This document shows, piece after piece, positions 1,725 to 56,115 of a stretch of 64,000 nucleotides of DNA; position 1 is the first letter of the stretch, and every line of letters starts with the position of its first letter. The stretch is taken from NCBI GenBank assembly GCA_050250375.1, contig JBFWOS010000002.1, forward strand, positions 453,149-517,148, in the 5' to 3' direction. Position numbers and translations under genes: made by a program. Below the pieces are notes generated by a model. It did no database searches, was not told the DNA's origin, and saw nothing but the letters and a program-made list of their open reading frames with translations. This DNA is from Candidatus Omnitrophota bacterium. Its GTDB lineage: Bacteria > Omnitrophota > Gorgyraeia > Zapsychrales > Zapsychraceae.

Positions 1725-1797
1725 ATTATAAGGAGTTTTAGGATAAAGTCTACACTAATTTGTGTGGGGCGGATCAAAACACCACGCGCGTGGTGTT
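1725..1797 (+). repeat. Copy A of a ~70-bp direct repeat (ttataa..gtttt..agtctacac(t/c)aatttgtg(t/c)gggg(c)cggatcaaaacaccacgcgcgtggtgtt). It ends in the perfect 20-bp palindrome AACACCACGCGCGTGGTGTT at 1778-1797.
   Basis: Near-identical to copy B at 2381-2453. Confidence 0.75.
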
Positions 1798-1842: not shown

Positions 1843-2317
1843 TCAATCCGAATGAAAACCGATTTTGCGTGTGGGTGAAATTGGCGGCGGTGTCATCAAC
1901 TGCCGGATGGCTTCAAAGACCATCCGGATATCACCGTCGTGTTTCGCCACTTTATTTTCCAGTTCAGCCAGTTTCAACCCAAGTTCTTTATTGGTAACAA
2001 CCATTTCTCTTAGCCGGACAAAAGCGCGCATGATTTGGATATTGACGCGGACGGCCCGTTTGCTTCTGAGAACACTGGAGAGCATCGCCACCCCAGCTTG
2101 AAGTCACAATTTGTGACTTCAAGTTTTTAAACTCCGCGTCGCTCAACTGGAACATAAAATCTTCAGGGAACCGGTTTAGATTGCGTTTAACCGACTGGAC
2201 TAAAACCTTGACTTCAACTTGATAAAGTCTGGCGAGATCCGGGCTAAGCATCACCTTATGACTGCGGACTATGAAAATTTTATGTTCGAGTAATTCTTGT
2301 GGGATAACATCGTTCAT
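1843..2317 (-). pseudogene. ORF6N-domain (KilA-N-like, phage-associated) gene disrupted by an internal deletion and frameshift
   Basis: The N-terminal ORF 1988..2317 gives ...[54 protein letters not shown]. The C-terminal ORF 1843..2091 gives (G)[30 protein letters not shown]... in another frame. The two frames overlap on the same nucleotides (agctggggtggcgatg), so roughly 12 codons are missing. Confidence 0.65.
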
Positions 2318-2380: not shown

Positions 2381-2453
2381 TTATAAATGGTTTTTTGCTA
2401 TAGTCTACACCAATTTGTGCGGGGCCGGATCAAAACACCACGCGCGTGGTGTT
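2381..2453 (+). repeat. Copy B of the ~70-bp direct repeat, with palindrome AACACCACGCGCGTGGTGTT at 2434-2453
   Basis: Direct sequence match to copy A. Confidence 0.75.
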
Positions 2454-2489
2454 TTGGTCAGCAGAGGTGAAATGTTAAAGAATTATGTC

Positions 2490-34134: not shown

Positions 34135-34878
34135 TTACGGCAGGAATTGGGCCCATTGTTTTTCGACTGTTTTGGCGTCCGTTTTTAAACCAAGGGCCAT
34201 TTCCCGGGAAATCTTGTCCGGGAAAATATCCTCTTCGCCTTTTTCCAGGGACTCAAGGATATTGTTGACCAGTTGGGCGGGTGATGTTTTTTCCAGCTGA
34301 AGGTCTTTCGTCATCTCGGTGTCGGTTGCCCCGGGATAAACACCGGTGACGATTGTTCCGGCGGCAGCCAGTTCACCGCGGAGGCTTTGGGTCAGCGAAT
34401 GCACCGCCGCTTTGGTGGCCGAGTACGTCCCTAAGGCCGGGATCCCGACCAGTCCGGCGACCGAGGAAATATTGATGATCTGTCCCCCGCCGTTCCTTTT
34501 TAAAACCGGCTGAAAGGCGCGCACCATATTTAATAATCCGAAATAATTGACCTCCATTTCTCCCCGGGCGGAACGCATGTCCGGCGCGCCGACGAGCGCG
34601 GCGTAATCGGCCCGTCCCGCGTTATTGATCAGCACGTTGACATCCAGGGCGGCAGCCGCGGCAGCCAGGACTTCACTTTCGTTGGTGACGTCCAGGCGAA
34701 CGGGTTTGATCCGTTCCGGTGCAAGCGCGGTCAATTCTTTAAGGGATTCGATGTTCCGGGCCCCCGCGTAGATTTTTTTGACGCCCCGTTTGATCAATTC
34801 TTCCGCAAAGGCCTTGCCGATCCCGCGGTTGGCCCCGGTGATCAGGACGATTGAACCTTGGATATTAAATTTTTTCAT
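34135..34878 (-). CDS. Short-chain dehydrogenase/reductase (SDR) family oxidoreductase
   Basis: It begins at the internal ATG (MKKFNIQGSIVLITGANRGIGKAF, the TGxxxGxG Rossmann motif) and has the YxxxK site (YSATKAAVH). The upstream 145 codons of the 34135..35313 track ORF are an R/P/G-rich antisense shadow of the ada-like gene. Confidence 0.85.
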   Translation of the reverse strand: MKKFNIQGSIVLITGANRGIGKAFAEELIKRGVKKIYAGARNIESLKELTALAPERIKPVRLDVTNESEVLAAAAAALDVNVLINNAGRADYAALVGAPDMRSARGEMEVNYFGLLNMVRAFQPVLKRNGGGQIINISSVAGLVGIPALGTYSATKAAVHSLTQSLRGELAAAGTIVTGVYPGATDTEMTKDLQLEKTSPAQLVNNILESLEKGEEDIFPDKISREMALGLKTDAKTVEKQWAQFLP

Positions 34879-43040: not shown

Positions 43041-46000
43041 CTATCGCGCCAGGGTAAGTTTGGGGGCGGCGGGGGTTTCTTCGTTTGGTCCGGCATGGCC
43101 CAGGATAAACGGCAGGTACAGGACGGGGCGGATGTCGATGATGACCGGGAAGTATCCGCCGATGTGCATGAGTTCCAGCGGCTGTTCCTGGATGGGCAGC
43201 GGGATGCCGAAGTCATCACGTTTGATCTGTAAATCCAGCCAGCGCGGGTTTAAGTCGATCCCCCCCACGGACTTGATCGTCTGTTCTTCGGCGGACATCA
43301 TGTGGTCCTTTTTGGGATCGGACGTCCGGACGTGGGCCAGGACTTCCGGGTTGAGGACATTTTCCGGGATCTTGCCGTCAATCAGGCGCCTGAGGTTCAG
43401 CATGGCGCGCGCGATCTTGAATTGCCTGACCTTCCAGACGGCGGCGGCCGTGTGGCCGGACAGTTTGACATTGGTGAGCTGTTCCCCCTCATCGTTGACA
43501 AACCGGCGCTGGCTTTCCCCTTCGTCGTTTAAGACGTCCAGCCGGATCTGAACGCCGGGGTGTTCGATGGCGTAATGGATCAGCGCGTTTTCATCCACCT
43601 GGAATTTGCTCGCGTTGATCAGGACGCGCACCGGGCCTTCTGCGTCCAGACCGAATTGCTGCAGGGCCTCTTCGTTCACCCATTCGACATTGCGCTGTTT
43701 GGAGGAATCGTCCAGGGTGGTGACAATATTACTGCGCCGGAAGAAATCCATTTTGTCGGCGTAGGCCGGCGCTTTCATGCCGGGCCCGTACACCTTGCGG
43801 CGGTTGTCGGCGATCTGGCTGAACGCGTCATGTTTGGCCTCCAGGTCGCGGGTGTCCATGCTTTCGGTATCAATCAGGAGATTAACGCCGAAGGCCAGCG
43901 CCCGTTTCGCCAGGGCTGTCCCGATGCGCCGGATGCCGTGCACGCCGAACGTCTGACGGGCGAGGCCCGTCTGAAGGACGTTGCTATCCTTAATAAAAAT
44001 CTGGTCCGCGTCAATCACGACCCCTTTGACCTTTTCCTTGTCCCGCAGGCTTTTGTAGGCCTTGTCCGACGGTGTTTTCAGGATATAATCGGACGACCGC
44101 ACCAGTTCCGATTCCTCCACGAGTTTTAAATTGATCGAGATCCCTTTGATCTCGGAGTTTTTTATGATCGTCTGGATCAGGTCCTGGATCCGCCGGCGTG
44201 TGGATTCGCTCAGTTGTTCATATTCTTTGCGCAACACATAAATGGTGGCGGCCTGGTGGATGACGGCGGTTTCCAGCAGGTTGACCCCGGCGGTCTGCAG
44301 TCCCAGGATCCCGATCGTGGTGTGGATGCCGGCTTCGTCGTTCTGCCCGATCTGGTCGTGGTAAACGGTTGAATCGGGCGACACGCCGGTCTTGGCGTAT
44401 TTTCCGGAGCGGCCGAATTCAAACATCTCGTCCAGTTTCAGGGCTTTTTTGAGCAGCATGTACCACATGATGTGGGCCGCGTTGAGGCGTTCTTCGTTTG
44501 TCTTGGGCTTGACGCCCGAGAGTTTGACCGAGCCGGGTGTTTGTTCGAAGGAGACAAGCTGTCCGTAAACGCCGTCTAACGCCAGGGCGATATTCTGTTC
44601 GGCCACGGCGATGGTCGTCGGGCCGGGCGCGGTCGTGACCACGGTCTGGTGGCGGGTCGCCGCGTCCAGGTCGATATTGTGTTCGGCCGTGGCAAATAAG
44701 ACCAGGCCTTTCAGGTCGGCCTTTTCAAAGAAGGCGTCGTCAAAGCGGGTGTTGCAGTAACCCACGCAGAAGTCGTAGTCTTTCTGCGAGACGATCTGTC
44801 CGACGTTCGGGTCAATCCCGGCGATCAGACGCCCGTCTTTCTCAACGACCTCGGACTCGCTGCCGATGATGTCAAAATTGATATCGGAGAAATTGTCGCG
44901 CAGGGCCTCGATCATGTCCGGGTTGAGCGGTTCGACGACAAGAACGTTTGTCTTCCCCCTCTGCGAGGTCATCCGTTTAAATTTGAGTCCGGCCAGGGTG
45001 ACGTCGGTTTCTTTGTGGTACAGCACGTGGCCGTTTAAGATATTATGCGGGACCTGGAAGTTCATCAGCCGTTCCAGATTGTCCAGGGCGCGCTGAACTT
45101 TAAGCCGGCGGACCTGCGGAACGGCGGCGGCGGTGTGGCCGGCCACTTTGATATTGGGCAGCGGATTGTTCGACGCGTCCCTGAAGCGCTGGTGGGCGTC
45201 GCCTTTTTCTTCCTGGTTCACCACGTCCAGGCGGACTTCGACGTCCGGACGGTCCCGTAAATAATGCAGCAAGGCCTCTTCATCGATCAGGTTTTTGACC
45301 TGGCTGACAATGGCGCGCACGTCGCCCTTGGCGGACACGCCGAATTGTTCCAGTTTTTCGGCGTCAATCCACGATTCCGTTTCCGTGGTTAAAGGTGTTA
45401 AGGTCGTAATGATATTGCTCTGCTGCATGAAATGATCAAGGTCAACAAAAACGGCCCTTTGCTGTTCCGGGCCAGCGTCCCGCAGCATGAAAAATGACAG
45501 GCTGTTGAGGAAGTCGATTTTTTCCGTATACATCGGACGGGTGGATTCCCTTTGGTTGATCAGGGCGGTCGCGCGCAGGGCGATCACCCGCTGGGCCACG
45601 GCCTTTCCGATGCGTCCCAGCCCCTGTATCCCGACTTTCAAACCGGCCAACGAAAGTGAAAGCGTGGCCGGGTCTTTGATAAAAATGGTCTGCGGGTCGA
45701 CGTCGATCGGGTGCGCGTCCAGGAAATCACTTAAAGTCCTGTTCTGCCGGGCGGCCGGGGTGGCGATGGTGTAATCGGACACTTCCACCAGCACTTCTTT
45801 GGGCAGCGGTTTGATGGAGATTTTCATATCGTATTTACGTTTATTTTCTTCCATCGTTTTGATGAGGGATTGAAACCGCTCTTTGGCGGTTTCGTCCAGA
45901 TTTTTGTATTCATCTTCATCAACATAAATGGTGGATAATTCATGGGTGATGGCCATCTCGATGAGCCGTTCACCGACGGAATCAAGGCCCAGGATCCCCA

Positions 46001-49000
46001 GGCTGGTGTGGATGTCGGCCTCTTTGTTCTGCCCGAGCTGGTCGTGGTAGACGGTGGCCTGCGCGCCCACACCCGTGCGCACGTAACGTCCCTTGGTGGC
46101 GAAGGTGAACATTTCATTGAGTTTGAGCGACTGCTGCAGGAGCCGGTACCAGATGATCTGCGCTTGGGCATCGGGGTCCGCGCCGGTTTCCCGGACCAGA
46201 TCCGTCATGCGGCCGGTGGCCAATGTTTCTTCGGACAAGACCTTGCCCGCGTAAATGGAATCCAGCATCAGGCCGATATTTTGTTCCGCGACGGCCACGG
46301 TGGTCGGGCCCGGGGCGTTGGTCACAACGATGTCGTTGCGGCTGGCCGCGTCCAGGTCGATGTTATGAACGCCGGTGGAAAACAGGATCAGTCCCTTAAT
46401 TTCGGATGTGTCAAAGAATTCTTGGTCAAAGGTCTCGTTCACGTACCCGAGGACATAGTCGTAATGTTTGGCCTTGACCAGATCTTTGAGTTTGCCGCGC
46501 ACGCCGGGGATCCAGTTGGCCGTGTCGTCTTCGACAATCTCGGAGTCCGGCTGGATGATGTCGAAGTCCACATTCCCCATCTTTTTATGCAGCATGGAAA
46601 TGATGTCCGGGCCGATGGGTTCAACAACAAGAATGCGCGCCCGCGGATTGGGGACTTTTAAGACCAGGAATTTGAGGCCGTGCATGGTTGTCTCTGTGAC
46701 TTCGAGTTTCGGCCCGCTGACCATCCGATCAATTGTGTCATCGGTGTGCGGGATCCCCATCGAGGTCAAGACCTTGGCGATCCGGTGGCTGGACAGGCGG
46801 TACTGGTTCGGATAAGGAAAAATGTCCGGCAGCTGATTGGTGTCCATGCGCCATTTTACGGAATTCCAGAAATCCGGCTGAAACAAATCGCCGTGGATTC
46901 TTGTAAATTCTTTCTGGAATATTAACGGGATTTTCAGTTCCGCGAACAGTAAACCCGGATACACCCGGAAACGGTTTTTGCTGTCTTCCCTGGCCGGCAG
47001 TGTGACGACCGGCGGCTGGACCTTGCGGTAACTGGGGGCTGTGCGGAATTCTGTTTCTTCAATGCGGCCCAGGCCGGCATTGTTCATATAAACGACCCGG
47101 CCCCAGGACGTGATCCCGAAATGCCTCAGCGACATGTCTAAAGGGAAAATCCCCATCGACGCCAAATGTTTGATGTTCCAGCCGATTTTAATCAGGATAT
47201 CCAGCTGGGCGGCCGCATCGCTCTGGGCCCAAATGTCGGCAACCGGCGTGATATGCCGCTGCGCGAACATATTGATAAATGTGATGTGCGTTTCATCCAC
47301 AAAAATATCGGCGCCGGCCTCGCGTTTGAGCAGATCGACCAGTTCCGGGTCTACCATCGAAATGGGAAAACGCACATTCGAATACGCCCAGGAATCCAGC
47401 AGCTGCCCGTGCCGGTTTGATTTATGGATATCGCGGTAGGTATCCACGATATGCCCCCGGTTGGGTGCGTTATCCCTGATCACTTTAATGACGATGGGTG
47501 ATCCGGGTACCGCCATGGTGATCGACTGGTCCCCGTCCCCCAGATATTGAAGCCTGTTTCCGCTTTGTTCCATTTGTTCGTACAGTTCACCGAGATAGAT
47601 TTGCTGGGAACGCTGCGTGAGCCCGACTAGGTCGTAAATCTGCGCGAGGCTGACTTCCGGGAAAATGTCGGCGATGAAACGGATGACCTCCGGAAAATCC
47701 GGCGCGTTGATCATGAACGACGAACGGGTCGAGGACAGCAAAAGGTTTTTTGAGGTTAAATAATCGGTGACGACCGCGTCGATGACGACGCCGTTGTTCG
47801 GGTGTTTCAGCGCGATGATCAGCGGCACCGGTTTGTCATTGGTCAGAAAACGGCCGACCACGTACGCGGCCTTGTTGCGGTAAAACAGGGGTTTAAGGAC
47901 TTCAATCCCTTTGATCTCGACGTCCGCAGGCAGATGGGACAGCTGTTCCTCCAGCATCGCCGCGGTGATTTCGATATCCGTATCAGGGGTTTCGTACAAA
48001 TCCCGCAGGTCAAAGTCGTTGAGGATGGCCTGCACCGTCTCGCGCAGCGCCTGCGGTCCCTGGTACGGGTGCTGATGAATGACCTTGTCCGCAGGTGTCC
48101 GGATCCCGGAAACGGGTGTTGTCTTGTAATCTTTACGTAAAGGAAAATATGTCAGCCGGCTCATGACGGAATCCAGGAAACTTAACAGCAGGTCCTGTTT
48201 GTAATAGTCCTCCTGCGTTTCATAGTTGTGGCGAAGCATTGTGCGGATTTCGTCCCAGATGTGGACGTCGTCGATATATTCGCCCAGGATCATGCCGATG
48301 ATCTGGGTGGTCTGGTTGCTGATGCTTTCCTGCATTTCAAGCCGCATCTGTGAATAAATCAGGTTGCCGCGCCAGTCTTTATCACGGAAGAAAATCCGGG
48401 CCTTGTCCGTGGTCCGTTTAAAATGCAGGTAATATTCTTCAAAGCTGTGCTGGAATTCCGTGACGGCGGCGTTGAGGGTGGTCTCGTACGGTCCGGCCCG
48501 GTAATCCAGGATTGTTTTTTTGCTGTAATCGGCGCGATGGCGCAGGATAAATTTAAACATCTGTTGGCGCTGGTCATCGGTCAGATCATTCTGCGCGCTT
48601 AAGGAAGATTGGTTCCAGTCGCTGGGCGTGATGGTGTTGTACGCGCCGAACACAAAATGGACATGTTCGGTTTTATCCGGATTGTCGATGAACCATTCCA
48701 TTTCCCGGGCGAGTTCGTCGCGTTGCGGATGCGAAAACAAGTCGCGCGGCACCAGGACAAAGACCGGTTTGTCTTCGGTCGCGCGGGACGTGACGGCTTC
48801 CAGCAGTTTTTCGGCCGGGACATTGTCTTCCGTAAAAAATTCCTGGAAGCTCTCCTGCCAGGTGGACAGGCCGGAGACGGCGGCCAGCGCGGGATAACTG
48901 TGCTGCCAGGTGTCGAACCCGAGCAGGTACCCCCCTTCATATCCGGACAGCGGGATCCGGTCGATGAAATCATAAACGGTCATGGCTTTTTGGCGGATCA

Positions 49001-50330
49001 TCTCAAATCCGTCAAGATTGGTCCCGTAGAATTCGTTTCTCAAATTCCGCAACTCTTCCGTTAGGTTCACCGGATGCAGGATTTTGATTTGTTTCCTCGC
49101 GATCATCTGGCGCAGGGTGTCGTCTGATAAAGGTGCTGCCTCGTCTTCGCCGGACAACATGGCGGTGTCCGCGTTGGCCCCGATGTCGTATAAATCGGCG
49201 GTGACCTTAAAGAGCCGGGTATTCTGCGCGGAGTAATCATTAAGCATGGCCTGGTCCCCGGGGGTCAATGCGGCCGGGTCGCCGGTCAGGACGCGTAAAT
49301 TCCGCTGCTGGACGGGAAGCAGCCCGCCGGAAAAATATTGCCGGGGTAACACCTTGTGACTGACCGGGTCGACGTCTTCTCGGATAAAATTATACACCCC
49401 CACTGTAAAGGCCTTCATATACTGCTCATAGATTTTAGCGTTGAGCGTTTCATCCGCCGAGTCAATGCCCCGGATTTTATTGCGGTTCACATACGTCTGG
49501 GCCAGCAGGCTTTTTTTCAGCGTCATTTTATACCAGGTGGCAAGGATCATGGCGTGATACATCTGGCGCAGCGGGGCAAATGTCTTGCCGTTGTTCACTT
49601 CCTTTTCAATTTCCGGGATGATGTGTTCCCGGATCAGGCCGGTCAAACGCTGGTCGTCTTTGACGGCTGATTCATCCGTCGGCCGGGCGGCATCCAGGTA
49701 ATCCTTTTCCAGCATGACGGTCAGGTGGCTTTGGATCACGTAAGCGCCCTGGGTGTGTTCGTACACCACCGCGTTGTCCGGAACGATCCAGATTTTATGC
49801 AGGAAATCATTAATATCCATTTCCGGCGCATTGGTCTCTTTCAGCGCTTTGGACCAGAAGGTCCGGCCGGGCTCCTGGTCGGGATGCAGGAGCGACGCCG
49901 TTAATTGTTTCAATAAATAGTCCTGGCTTAACAAATCCCGCCCCATCCCGGTCCGGCCCAGCCCTTCGGCCACCATCCGGTTTTGTTCGTGGGGTGATAA
50001 ATTGACCCACATTTCATCTTCGGGGACGGTTAAGGACGCTAAAAAATATTTGATCAGCCGGGCGGATTCATCCTGGAATTCGGCGCGGCCGTAGGGGTCG
50101 CCGCCGGCCTTGATCATAAAATCAAAACGCAAAGGGTGTTCGGGGTTAAGGATGATGCCGGTCAGCAGGGCGGGTGTGTAATTTTCCGTCGGTGTGATCA
50201 GGGTTCCGGGCACGGGCAGGTGGCTGGTCTGGGCAAGAAGTACAGACGGCGCCGCGAGTTGTATTAAGAAGACAAACGCGGTGGCGCAAACCAGGGCTTT
50301 AAATCCGAATTGTCGCGAAGAACGTGCCAT
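43041..50330 (-). CDS. Giant secreted multidomain protein (2429 aa): signal peptide, shared N-terminal module, full-length AceK-like isocitrate dehydrogenase kinase/phosphatase homolog, two tandem D-isomer-specific 2-hydroxyacid-dehydrogenase-like units, and the shared C-terminal module
   Basis: An ATG start with signal peptide ...SVLLAQ. The AceK-like segments include [16 protein letters not shown]..., [21 protein letters not shown] and [10 protein letters not shown]. The 2-Hacid_dh motifs are [33 protein letters not shown] and GHTAAAV, each present twice. Confidence 0.85.
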   Translation of the reverse strand: [2429 protein letters not shown]

Positions 50331-50463: not shown

Positions 50464-50501
50464 ATATTGAATTGATATAAGAATATATTGTTTTAATATT
50501 A

Positions 50502-51614
50502 TTGTCAAATAATATTCTAAATTCCCCCGCTTTTATTTATAATAGCTTCATGACTACTTCCGTGTCGAACTCCAGTCTTCAGGAACTGATCAGCCAGATC
50601 AGCTCCATTTATCTTAAGGCGCAGGACGATTCTAAAAAACAGGTCAACCAGATCATTGTCGAGGCGTACTGGCAGATCGGCCGGCGGATCGTTGAGGTCG
50701 AACAGAAAGGCCGGCAGCGGGCGGTTCAGGGGGACGAACTCCTGATCAACCTCTCCAGAGCATTGAGCGAAACGTTGGGAAGCGGGTTTTCCATCACCAA
50801 TCTGCAATACATGCGGCAGTATTTCCTGGCTTACCCAAAACACCACGCGCGTGGTGATTTGCCCTGGACCCATTACCGCACCCTGCTGACGGTCAAAGAT
50901 CCGGAATTGCGGGCCTATTACGAAAAACAGGCCAGCACACACCAGTGGAGCAGCCGTGACCTGGACCGGTATTTAAAGCTGGACAAAGTGGAGCGGGAAC
51001 GTATTGCTTTGTCCGGTTCTAACCCAAAAGAGACGTCTGACCCGGAACCTGCTTTTGAGATTGTCCGGGGTCCCTTATACACTTATTCCCTGACCAATGC
51101 ACCGATGGGTCCATCCATTCAAAGCCCTTTGATGGTGGACTGCGGTTTTCAGATCTTTAAAGAAATGACTTTCAAAAAGATCGGCCCGCTCAAGAGCGGG
51201 GATCTCGTTTCCTGCAAAAAAACGTCCGATGATTTTCAGCTACGCAAGACCGACCTCCCTCCCGGCCGGCTTTATGTTTACAAGGCCCTGGTGGAACGGG
51301 TGGTTGACGGCGACACGCTCCTTTGCCTGATCGATGCGGGCTTCCACAATTGGACCCGCCAGCGTCTGCGTCTTCGCAACATCAACACCCCGGAAATCAA
51401 CACCCCCCGCGGCCAAAAGGCCAAGGCGTTTGTACAGGAATCCCTCACCCATTGCGAGTTTGTGATTGTCAAAACCTACAAGACCGATAAATATGACCGG
51501 TATCTCGCGGATGTCTTTTATCTGAACGGCGTGAAATATCCCGACGTGGTGGCCGAAGAAGGACGATTGCTCAACCAGGATTTGGTTGAGAACAATCTTG
51601 CAAGTTTGTATTAA
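50502..51614 (+). CDS. Fusion of a YhcG-type N-terminal domain (DUF1016_N) with a staphylococcal-nuclease-like (SNase/thermonuclease) domain. The start is uncertain: TTG at 50502 or ATG at 50550.
   Basis: The N-terminus (...QYFLAYPKHHARGDLPWTHYRTLLTVKDPELRAYYEKQASTHQWSSRDLDRYL) matches the YhcG N-domain. The C-terminus (VVDGDTLLCLIDAG...RLRLRNINTPE...PRGQKAKAF....DKYDRYLADVFY) matches the SNase fold motifs DGDT / R(L/I)xGIDxPE / DRYGR. Confidence 0.6.
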   Translation: MSNNILNSPAFIYNSFMTTSVSNSSLQELISQISSIYLKAQDDSKKQVNQIIVEAYWQIGRRIVEVEQKGRQRAVQGDELLINLSRALSETLGSGFSITNLQYMRQYFLAYPKHHARGDLPWTHYRTLLTVKDPELRAYYEKQASTHQWSSRDLDRYLKLDKVERERIALSGSNPKETSDPEPAFEIVRGPLYTYSLTNAPMGPSIQSPLMVDCGFQIFKEMTFKKIGPLKSGDLVSCKKTSDDFQLRKTDLPPGRLYVYKALVERVVDGDTLLCLIDAGFHNWTRQRLRLRNINTPEINTPRGQKAKAFVQESLTHCEFVIVKTYKTDKYDRYLADVFYLNGVKYPDVVAEEGRLLNQDLVENNLASLY

Positions 51615-55408: not shown

Positions 55409-55482
55409 TGGAGCGGGCGATGAGAATCGAACTCACGTATCTAGCTTGGAAGGCTAGTGTTCTACCACTGAACTACGCCCGC
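55409..55482 (-). tRNA. tRNA-Gly (anticodon TCC)
   Basis: The cloverleaf has acceptor GCGGGCG/CGCCCGC, anticodon loop CTTCCAA, T loop TTCGATT, U73 and an encoded CCA. Confidence 0.85.
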
Positions 55483-55581
55483 AAAAATTTCTGAAGAGAT
55501 TTTTGCGACGCTCGTTATAAACCTTCCGGTTCATGACGGCCCGCAAGAATTCACGATGAGGATTTTTTCCTTTGGAAAAAA

Positions 55582-55666
55582 TGGTGGGCAGTGGAGGATT
55601 CGAACCCCCGAAGGGAAACCCAACAGATTTACAGTCTGTCCTCGTTGACCGCTTGAGTAACTGCCC
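55582..55666 (-). tRNA. tRNA-Tyr (anticodon GTA), type II with a long variable arm
   Basis: It has acceptor GGGCAGT/ACTGCCC, a 3-bp D stem, anticodon stem ACAGA/TCTGT with loop CTGTAAA, a variable-arm hairpin GGGTTTCCC, A73 and CCA. Confidence 0.8.
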
Positions 55667-55765
55667 AAAGTACTGATAAAGAACTCTAACAAAGTTTAAC
55701 TAAATAATAAGCAGTAAGTTGAAGAATCAATCCGCAACTTACTGCTTGCCGTTAACTTCTTAGAA

Positions 55766-55841
55766 TGGAGCTGGCGAGAGGCTTCGAACCCCCGACCTGC
55801 TGATTACAAGTCAGCTGCTCTACCAACTGAGCTACGCCAGC
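55766..55841 (-). tRNA. tRNA-Thr (anticodon TGT)
   Basis: It has acceptor GCTGGCG/CGCCAGC, D arm GCTC-AGTTGGTA-GAGC, anticodon stem GCTGA/TCAGC with loop CTTGTAA, T loop TTCGAAG and CCA. Confidence 0.75.
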
Positions 55842-56115
55842 AAAGCTGAAATTTATCGTATAATTTCAAAAAATCTCTGAAAACGAGTCCTATTTATACC
55901 AGATTTATAGTGGGCTGTAAAGAATGTTTTTTTGAGTTTTGGATATACAAGACATTGGACGATTGGTTGATATGACGCAACAATTTAAGAGAGACTTGGT
56001 TCGATGGGTTTCTTTTTTATAATTCGTTTTTAGGGTTTTAAGTGAATTTTATTGAGAAAAATGTACGTTAAAGAAAAGGCCACCACAGATGTGGTGGCCT
56101 TTTCTGGGGCAGTTT

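Follow-up and report, generated by a model that had tools for sequence, protein, structure and literature searches.

An SNase-type branch of the YhcG (DUF1016) family in Omnitrophota and a palindrome at a fixed position inside YhcG-family genes

The 64,000-nucleotide (nt) stretch analysed here, hereafter the window, belongs to contig JBFWOS010000002.1 (positions 453,149 to 517,148; assembly GCA_050250375.1) of a Candidatus Omnitrophota bacterium, and carries at 50550..51614 a gene whose product joins the N-terminal domain of the YhcG family (DUF1016_N) to a predicted staphylococcal nuclease (SNase) fold, in the place of the usual PD-(D/E)XK nuclease. Inside the coding sequence, just upstream of the codon of a conserved tryptophan (Trp), lies a palindrome, and palindromes of differing sequence were found at the equivalent place in many SNase-type and canonical YhcG genes of several phyla. 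The domain swap alone is modest; a palindrome anchored to a codon throughout the family is the more surprising result. The reading that we favour, at a probability of roughly 0.55, is that of a three-part, cytoplasmic, stand-alone nuclease of the YhcG kind acting in genome conflict, whose gene would be controlled by its own DNA-level dyad.

The gene and its product

The sequence-only reading from which this analysis started had placed the gene at 50502-51614 of the + strand, an open reading frame (ORF) of 370 amino acids (aa) when counted from TTG. The frame exists, and its start is probably wrong: the NCBI record and all close homologues, the orthologues P0002 and P0003 included, begin at the ATG of position 50550 (MTTSVS...), 48 nt downstream of the TTG at 50502. 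The coding sequence is therefore taken as 50550..51614 on the + strand (354 aa plus stop), with this ATG as its most likely start. The protein is 100% identical over 354 aa to the NCBI/Logan protein P0001, from a 1.0-Mb contig of a Candidatus Omnitrophota metagenome-assembled genome (MAG). Relatives are already in public databases under the RefSeq name "DUF1016 N-terminal domain-containing protein"; the fusion is automatically annotated, yet to our knowledge it has not been described. Its N-terminus reads as hydrophilic and without a signal peptide, and it is therefore presumably cytoplasmic. Residues are numbered below on the 354-aa protein, except for the two Pfam spans, which follow the 370-aa ORF.

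Profile searches revealed the two ends of the protein. Pfam DUF1016_N (PF17761) matched aa 33-162 (E=6.5e-35; 120.7 bits, cut-off 32.8), a domain of six helices encoded at 50598..50987 (+ strand), and Pfam SNase (PF00565) matched aa 288-370 (E=1.7e-8; 35.3 bits, gathering cut-off 21), while no Pfam match to YhcG_C (PF06250) or PD-(D/E)XK was obtained, even at E<=1. A sequence search of the PDB retrieved S. aureus thermonuclease chains (E~5e-5), and the PHROG 452 'endonuclease' profile matched at E=1e-27. The NCBIfam models NucI (31.1 bits, cut-off 250) and EcnA (28.8 bits, cut-off 180) were not reached, and such scores, far below the cut-offs, place the protein outside the named nuclease equivalogs.

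A full-length AlphaFold2 model built on 120 relatives reached a mean predicted local distance difference test (pLDDT) score of 89, and 95-98 across the SNase region, and showed three parts: six helices (aa 7-144), a five-strand beta unit (aa 178-233) and a beta-barrel with additional helices (aa 243-347). When this model was compared with the PDB by Foldseek, the best 50 matches listed were exclusively SNase entries, and S. aureus nuclease itself was matched at E~3e-7 (target template-modelling (TM) score 0.68, root-mean-square deviation 2.5, 117 columns, 27% identity). The predicted SNase-fold nuclease domain, located at 51276..51611 (+ strand; residues 243-354) by Pfam, PDB sequence search and Foldseek, covers ~112 aa. 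These three approaches bear out the fusion of a YhcG-type N-domain to an SNase-like domain proposed by the sequence-only reading; the motifs that it had quoted (VVDGDTLLCLIDAG, RLRNINTPEINTPRGQKAKAF and DKYDRYLADVFY) were all found, and the C-terminal half proved to be SNase by profile, sequence and predicted structure, with no PD-(D/E)XK. The nuclease fold that it had assigned to the C-terminal ~150 aa is present and is shorter than supposed; a separate unit of ~60 aa precedes it. This five-strand beta unit (51072..51254, + strand), delimited by the model's secondary structure and the relatives' alignment, had no Pfam match; few motifs of the family are better conserved than RGxLYTY and VDCGF, which lie in it, and D197, G199 and F200 are invariant or nearly so.

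A second model, restricted to aa 1-240 (pLDDT 81.5), was used for the N-terminal part. Its top 20 PDB matches in Foldseek were all ParB/Noc DNA-binding domains, at weak scores (E 0.035-0.5, probability 0.84-1.0, TM about 0.3); every match better than E=0.5 was of this kind, and none was assigned to the beta unit. A Pfam HTH_ParB match to the protein, below its cut-off (E=0.16), agrees with these structural matches. The N-domain may therefore resemble a ParB-like helix-turn-helix, which is a lead given by a predicted model and not a result.

The palindrome in the window and in close orthologues

The in-gene palindrome is a 26-bp dyad at 50836..50861 (CAAAACACCACGC/GCGTGGTGATTTG) with one mismatched pair in its outer arms and a perfect 16-nt core at 50841-50856 (arms of 8 nt). 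It codes for P-K-H-H-A-R-G-D-L, the loop that precedes the conserved LPWTHY, and its centre precedes the codon of the conserved Trp by 16 nt. The sequence AAACACCACGCGCGTGGTG is present three times in the window, versus 0 expected by chance. The second and third copies, both on the - strand, are a perfect 26-nt palindrome at 2431-2456, to which the in-gene copy is identical over 21 consecutive bases, and a perfect 20-nt palindrome at 1778-1797, which the in-gene copy also matches. The gene had been said to contain the third copy of a 20-bp palindrome: three copies do exist, and the in-gene one measures 16 nt when perfect, or 26 with one mismatched pair. Long inverted repeats are rare in the window, where only four have perfect arms of at least 10 nt, both intergenic copies included.

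The two intergenic copies lie within direct repeats of ~65 nt (1733..1797 and 2388..2456), each containing the palindrome followed, on the - strand, by a promoter-like TAGACT-16-TATAAT. This promoter-like sequence is found 24 nt downstream of the 2431-2456 copy, leading into a broken ORF6N gene, and 26 nt downstream of the 1778-1797 copy, leading into a Gp49-like/HTH_3 pair. The Gp49-like (1184-1591) and HTH_3 (907-1197) genes form a toxin-antitoxin-like pair that adjoins a tRNA gene (773-843). Together these elements resemble a small island whose genes have one control cassette in common.

Close orthologues retain the palindrome at the exact site through changes on both arms, some of which alter the amino acid: CACCACGC/GCGTGGTG in the window corresponds to CAAAACATCACGC/GCGTGATGTTTTG in P0002, CAAAACATCACGG/CCGTGATGTTTTG in P0003 and GGGCACGC/GCGTGCCC in P0006. 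In P0007 (54% identity) the palindrome is lost.

Several trivial origins were considered and rejected. The intergenic copies are not relics of DUF1016 genes, their likeness being confined to the palindrome itself, and an inserted mobile repeat of the Rickettsia palindromic element kind is at odds with a loop whose length is equal with and without the palindrome. An intrinsic terminator fails as a general explanation, given that most palindromes of the family have no T-tract after the stem; a terminator scan of the window copy flagged the antisense strand only. Similarly, the C_CCA_AAA that could suggest a -1 frameshift signal precedes the stem in the window only, is unconserved and has the wrong spacer. 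Rfam, at the gathering threshold over the whole window, detected five tRNAs only and none of its families at the palindrome copies. A scan of metagenome contigs with AAACAYCACGSSCGTGRTG was uninformative, returning at least 120 loci, none of which coded for the protein (tblastn empty) and almost all of which were single chance matches.

Two other symmetrical sequences of the window were recorded. The longest inverted repeat (56072-56105; 16-nt arms, AGAAAAGGCCACCACA-ga-TGTGGTGGCCTTTTCT) shares a CCACCAC/GTGGTGG core with the in-gene palindrome; it follows closely on a group of three tRNA genes (55412-55841) and is probably a terminator. A perfect 14-nt palindrome, ATTTCCCGGGAAAT, at 34199-34212 is what we take to be the Noc-binding-site consensus of B. 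subtilis; one given 14-mer is expected about 5e-4 times per 64 kb, and the occurrence may be due to chance.

The palindrome across the YhcG family

Positions were counted from the Trp codon of the conserved motif (LxW[ST]HY-like), which was located in 74 SNase-type genes. The longest perfect inverted repeat of the gene fell in the 30-nt bin just upstream of this codon in 28 of them, against 1-5 in the other bins. At a centre -16 nt from Trp, at least 9 of 13 positions were complementary in 31/74 genes, compared with 0.15% of 22,273 same-phase centres elsewhere in the genes and with 4.2% when synonymous codons were shuffled; a threshold of 11 of 13 was reached by 35%, versus 0.34% in the shuffled sequences. 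The distribution of pairing was bimodal and dropped sharply past 13 nt per arm, the longest arms being of 17 nt, that is, a perfect palindrome of 34 nt. Both the palindrome, which varies by lineage, and the encoded loop are variable in sequence. In the 31 palindrome-bearing genes 12 of the 13 pairs presented double changes, and the covariation score was 0.80, versus 0.19 for shuffled genes and 0.06-0.21 for slid partners. This set was chosen for pairing, which biases its percentage of paired cells, and the unselected figures are the 74-gene counts. The central bases were also complementary, with pair 19-22 matched in 30/31 and pair 20-21 in 26/31 genes. The Rickettsiales and Leptospira members had no intragenic palindrome.

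The same element was found in canonical YhcG genes. In 26 of 40 distinct PD-(D/E)XK YhcG genes sampled from IMG/VR viral contigs, an inverted repeat whose arms measured 7 nt or more, 15 at most, was centred exactly -18 nt from the Trp codon; it was the gene's longest in 23/40, and loop insertions displaced it in several others. Plasmid-borne canonical genes carried the palindrome in six of nine cases (Segatella, Pseudanabaena, Citrobacter, Arthrobacter, Rhodococcus and Hymenobacter), and a Burkholderia canonical gene presented arms of 14 nt. For example, yhcG of E. coli K-12 contains the 33-nt near-perfect AAAGATTTGGCAGAC-gct-GTCTGCCAAATCTTT (NC_000913.3 3368204-3368236; L214:6205-6237), matched at >=99% identity in 3524 of the 3559 E. 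coli genomes having it. The 3′ arm ends in both subfamilies on the TTG codon of the conserved Leu. The SNase-type dyad spans 26 bp around a centre at -16 nt because its loop is one codon shorter; canonical dyads are one codon longer, with about 29 bp around a centre at -18 nt.

Further copies of a gene's own palindrome were searched for and none was detected in the flanks (up to 6-10 kb each side) of 19 other SNase-type genes, on the Arthrobacter or Hymenobacter plasmids, or in the 3559 E. coli genomes (median of 2 places per genome, a single site counted once on each strand); among the places searched, extra copies occur only in this window. The positional conservation spans Omnitrophota, Actinomycetota, Bacteroidota, Cyanobacteriota, Pseudomonadota and viral contigs. 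Judged from these comparisons, the dyad appears to be a conserved cis-element of the whole YhcG family, of fixed position and not of fixed sequence. Nothing relevant was found in the literature on palindromes of DUF1016 or ORF6N genes, nor on intragenic palindromes or operators of this kind.

In at least two E. coli strains (e.g. NZ_CP092449.1; L307:2501-2531) the truncation point of yhcG coincides exactly with the 3′ arm of the palindrome, beside a small transposase gene, and the dyad may be a rearrangement or insertion breakpoint.

The ORF6N genes (PADLOC PDC-S05 type) are a second, unrelated family with an intragenic dyad at a fixed position. All five examined carry their own palindrome of 25-31 nt, with arms of 12-15 and a loop of 1-3 (window 2097-2123; L024:7316-7342; L066:7392-7418; L077:2061-2091; L007:271-295), placed inside the coding sequence at the motif L[RK]SQ[IF]xTS in the three motif-bearing genes checked (window, L066 and L077), and compensatory changes were observed, e.g. 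GAAGTCAC/GTGACTTC versus GAGGTCAC/GTGACCTC. The ORF6N gene of the window (1843-2317, - strand) is broken into ORFs 1988-2317 and 1843-2091, which overlap in different frames; the intact L077 gene (...SSWGGRR...) has a stretch after SSWGG that the window gene lacks, and the window gene is interrupted a few bases downstream of its internal palindrome.

As to what the dyad does, a DNA-level site, bound by a protein or acting as a roadblock, is tentatively preferred. It is favoured because pairing continues across the central bases, which a hairpin would leave free as its loop, because the mismatches (10 of G.U type, 8 of A.C type and 26 others) show no overall G.U excess, because the identical sequence recurs upstream of two promoter-like sites in the window, which a pure structure model does not predict, and because the N-domain looks ParB-like. 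The more specific proposal, in which the dyad of 26-33 bp is recognised by a dimer of the gene's own ParB-like N-domain for autoregulation or for the marking of 'self', is doubtful. The first three of the points listed above count against a folded structure, which is nevertheless a real possibility, either as an mRNA hairpin that would hold down the translation or stability of a toxic nuclease, or as a DNA hairpin or cruciform: pairing is conserved while sequence is not, both arms change together in orthologues even at an amino-acid cost, the predicted RNA stems have energies of -11 to -13.5 kcal/mol, and at one pair 7/7 exceptions are G.U on the sense strand. Because half-sites drift and extra copies are lacking, in E. 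coli and on plasmids among other places, a structure-forming element fits as well as an operator. Recombination-type roles take the small share of probability that is left.

Genomic setting and distribution

The gene and its orthologues P0002, P0003, P0006, P0007 and P0008 (86-54% identity) are always convergent with gpsA, and a divergent giant gene lies upstream in the window and in four of the five orthologues, being absent in P0006; the gene behaves as a stable chromosomal resident in this lineage. A consensus scan predicted a promoter-like site, TTGATA-16-TAATAT, at 50472..50499 (+ strand), within the 219-nt divergent intergenic region shared with the giant gene.

The giant gene of the window (43041-50330, - strand) codes for 2429 aa, with AceK-like regulatory (E=1.8e-45) and kinase (E=5.8e-37) domains and two D-2-hydroxyacid-dehydrogenase modules behind an N-terminal hydrophobic segment; relatives have, at the orthologous positions, genes of 1958-5136 aa, ELFV dehydrogenase domains being present in some.

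A protein search retrieved 269 clusters, nearly all of 320-370 aa with PF17761 plus PF00565, and those bearing organism names were almost all from Omnitrophota. A scan of species-representative (GTDB) genomes found more than 336 relatives, hosted by Omnitrophota, MAGs labelled Planctomycetales, Rickettsiales, Leptospira, Latescibacterota, Elusimicrobiota and others, with at least two paralogues in several genomes. Full-length relatives were also found on 25 Leptospira plasmids. No phage record contained the full DUF1016_N-SNase architecture, the halves being matched separately. The replacement is ancient and not an event in this genome; the fusion is an old and widespread subfamily that spans several phyla, and not a recent swap. 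The domain replacement that had been read from the gene alone is hence real, YhcG_C being absent and SNase present, and is family-wide rather than local.

The Leptospira plasmid relatives come from cultured pathogens, and their SNase domain is no longer detected by Pfam; one of them, on L. interrogans plasmid pLiSL44 (L090:5962-6954; 28% identity over 344 aa), adjoins an Rpn-family recombination-promoting nuclease and an IS982 transposase.

No partner gene (an immunity protein or a methylase, for instance) proved conserved among 271 flanking ORFs, which fell into 234 clusters. The 144 immediate neighbours were mixed and comprised ORF6N (3; immediately downstream of the SNase-type gene in 3/80 loci), helicase/ResIII (3-4), canonical YhcG (2), Cas3 (2) and PIN (2) genes, along with housekeeping genes (1-deoxy-D-xylulose 5-phosphate (DXP) reductoisomerase, aminotransferases and peptidases, peptidase M24 included). 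For example, in one Omnitrophota genome a first paralogue is placed beside a type I restriction-modification (RM) system with Fic, DUF3800 and patatin genes, and a second beside AbiEii, an EcoRI methylase and GmrSD.

This setting bears on the suggestion that the gene encodes a nuclease of defence or of mobile elements, which stays plausible from the relatives in RM/Abi islands and on Leptospira plasmids, while in this lineage the gene is a resident beside gpsA, and neither it nor its orthologues adjoin RM, Abi, GmrSD or Cas3 genes. A housekeeping nuclease of DNA repair, recombination or nucleic-acid turnover would account for that fixed place, kept in all orthologues from 86% to 54% identity, for the lack of adjoining defence genes in the window, and for neighbours elsewhere such as DXP reductoisomerase, an aminotransferase and peptidase M24. 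Such a role is nonetheless unlikely: the family is patchy, multi-copy in some genomes and plasmid-borne in Leptospira, RM, Abi and Cas3 genes adjoin relatives elsewhere, and the N-domain family is typical of RM/BREX (bacteriophage exclusion) islands (PMC9881135).

The active site of the SNase domain

The catalytic and metal-binding residues of SNase are D21, R35, D40, T41, E43 and R87. Their equivalents, mapped by alignment to S. aureus SNase and then counted in 120 relatives, are D255 for D21 (51312-51314; kept in 117/120), R274 for R35 (51369; 119/120), N279 for D40 (51384; D in 91 and N in 26 of 120), T280 for T41 (Thr in the query), E282 for E43 (51393; 117/120) and R317 for R87 (51498; 119/120), all on the + strand. 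A check of these residues had been suggested together with the original claim, and it leaves one gap in an otherwise complete set, the Asn at D40 in the query and in 26 of the 120 relatives. The counts suggest that the active site is under purifying selection and that Asn for D40 is a recurrent variant and not decay.

According to a contrary explanation, D40N would have left the SNase domain dead or weak, an OB (oligonucleotide/oligosaccharide-binding)-fold module that binds nucleic acid, and the protein would be a DNA-binding regulator. The Asn of the query clade, the Trp found at this place in Leptospira and the weak or absent Pfam SNase match of several relatives speak for it, but the other four catalytic residues are kept in 117-119 of 120 relatives, Asn-bearing members included, which is unusual for dead domains, and the side-chain oxygen of Asn is able to ligate a metal by general chemistry. 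We consider this explanation very unlikely.

Proposed function

In the reading that we favour, the N-terminal helical DUF1016_N module would most likely bind DNA as a ParB-type helix-turn-helix domain, the small beta unit comes next, and the SNase domain (OB-fold) would be the cutting module in place of the usual NucS/Hjc-like PD-(D/E)XK domain. The N-domain would hold or select the nucleic acid, and the SNase domain would hydrolyse it with its Asp/Arg/Glu/Arg set and a divalent metal. The setting would be genome conflict, in defence or in the maintenance of mobile elements, as is suspected for canonical YhcG. The dyad would be a DNA-level site controlling its own gene, either by binding the gene's own dimeric product or as a roadblock. 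The data show the domain architecture, how well the catalytic residues are conserved, how the family is distributed, and that the palindrome exists, where it lies and how its arms covary; nuclease activity, DNA binding by the N-domain, a defence role and the action of the palindrome are what we infer from them.

Several points weigh against this proposal. The half-site sequence drifts freely between orthologues while pairing stays, and searches of the E. coli genomes, of two plasmids and of the flanks of 19 other genes gave no further palindrome copies. The similarity of the N-domain to ParB is weak (E 0.035-0.5, TM about 0.3), and the calcium ligand D40 is replaced by Asn in the query and by Trp in the Leptospira plasmid relatives. 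The window has no defence or mobile neighbourhood around the gene, which lies between the 2429-aa gene and gpsA, and the position adjoining gpsA is kept down to 54% identity, like that of a resident gene. PDC-S02, the PADLOC system whose models match the N-domain, is itself a candidate defence system, and we know of no experiment on any DUF1016 protein.

That the palindrome should have no function at all is very unlikely. It would then be a self-perpetuating quasi-palindrome in a tolerant loop, kept up by template switching, which yields palindromes that are perfect up to the centre and that change on both arms at once; the variability of the encoded loop and the lack of a palindrome in many members (Rickettsiales, Leptospira) speak for it. 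The same codon-level position across five phyla and viral contigs, the bimodal presence, and the comparable dyad that the unrelated ORF6N family carries at a fixed motif of its own speak against it.

Comparison with known systems

YhcG was defined by a helical N-domain of ~200 aa and unknown fold followed by a PD-(D/E)XK domain (Kosinski et al., PMC1189080), which bears an E-D-E(I/L/V)K signature and is related to DUF91 and to YraN-like and archaeal Holliday-junction resolvases (PMC1189080). The protein described here shares with E. coli YhcG/COG4804 (PF17761 plus PF06250) a homologous N-domain, BLASTP to a canonical member aligning aa 13-138 only, the logic of an N-terminal helical module with a C-terminal nuclease, and an intragenic palindrome shortly before the codon of the conserved Trp. 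It differs in that the family's own PD-(D/E)XK (E-D-E(I/L/V)K) is absent and is replaced by the beta unit and the SNase fold. Compared with S. aureus nuclease A (PF00565), it has the OB-fold and equivalents of D21, R35, T41, E43 and R87, but it has no signal peptide, Asn for D40, a shorter C-terminal region (Pfam profile positions 1-77 of 107) and its nuclease domain behind two other modules. Against PADLOC PDC-S02, at least 25 models match the N-domain (E down to 8e-45), but only over the first ~150-170 residues, the nuclease part of the models being unmatched.

ParB proteins bind palindromes of about 16 bp (parS/NBS sites), and a B. subtilis parS is reportedly located inside the spo0J coding sequence. 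The likeness to ParB/Noc lies in the 20 best structural matches found for the aa 1-240 model, all of them weak, while the query has no CTPase N-domain.

Type I RM, BREX and mobile-element loci often carry YhcG/DUF1016 genes. These genes are 17-fold enriched beside inversion-targeted RM genes (PMC9881135) and occur on mobile elements of Rickettsia, Enterococcus and Clostridium (PMC4316617); the canonical plasmid genes sampled here lie within type I RM or BREX operons, in agreement with that enrichment. The N-domain is a portable module, and its pairing with two unrelated nuclease folds argues that it targets or senses, with the nuclease as an exchangeable effector. Should the dyad be functional, genes typical of defence islands would harbour a novel type of cis-element within their coding sequence, and the codon-optimised expression of such genes would call for caution. 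Should self-recognition also be true, the DNA coding for a loop of a DNA-binding domain would double as the site of that same protein, and ORF6N would be analogous. The presence of the dyad in both effector variants, and in yhcG of E. coli K-12, makes its role testable in a model organism.

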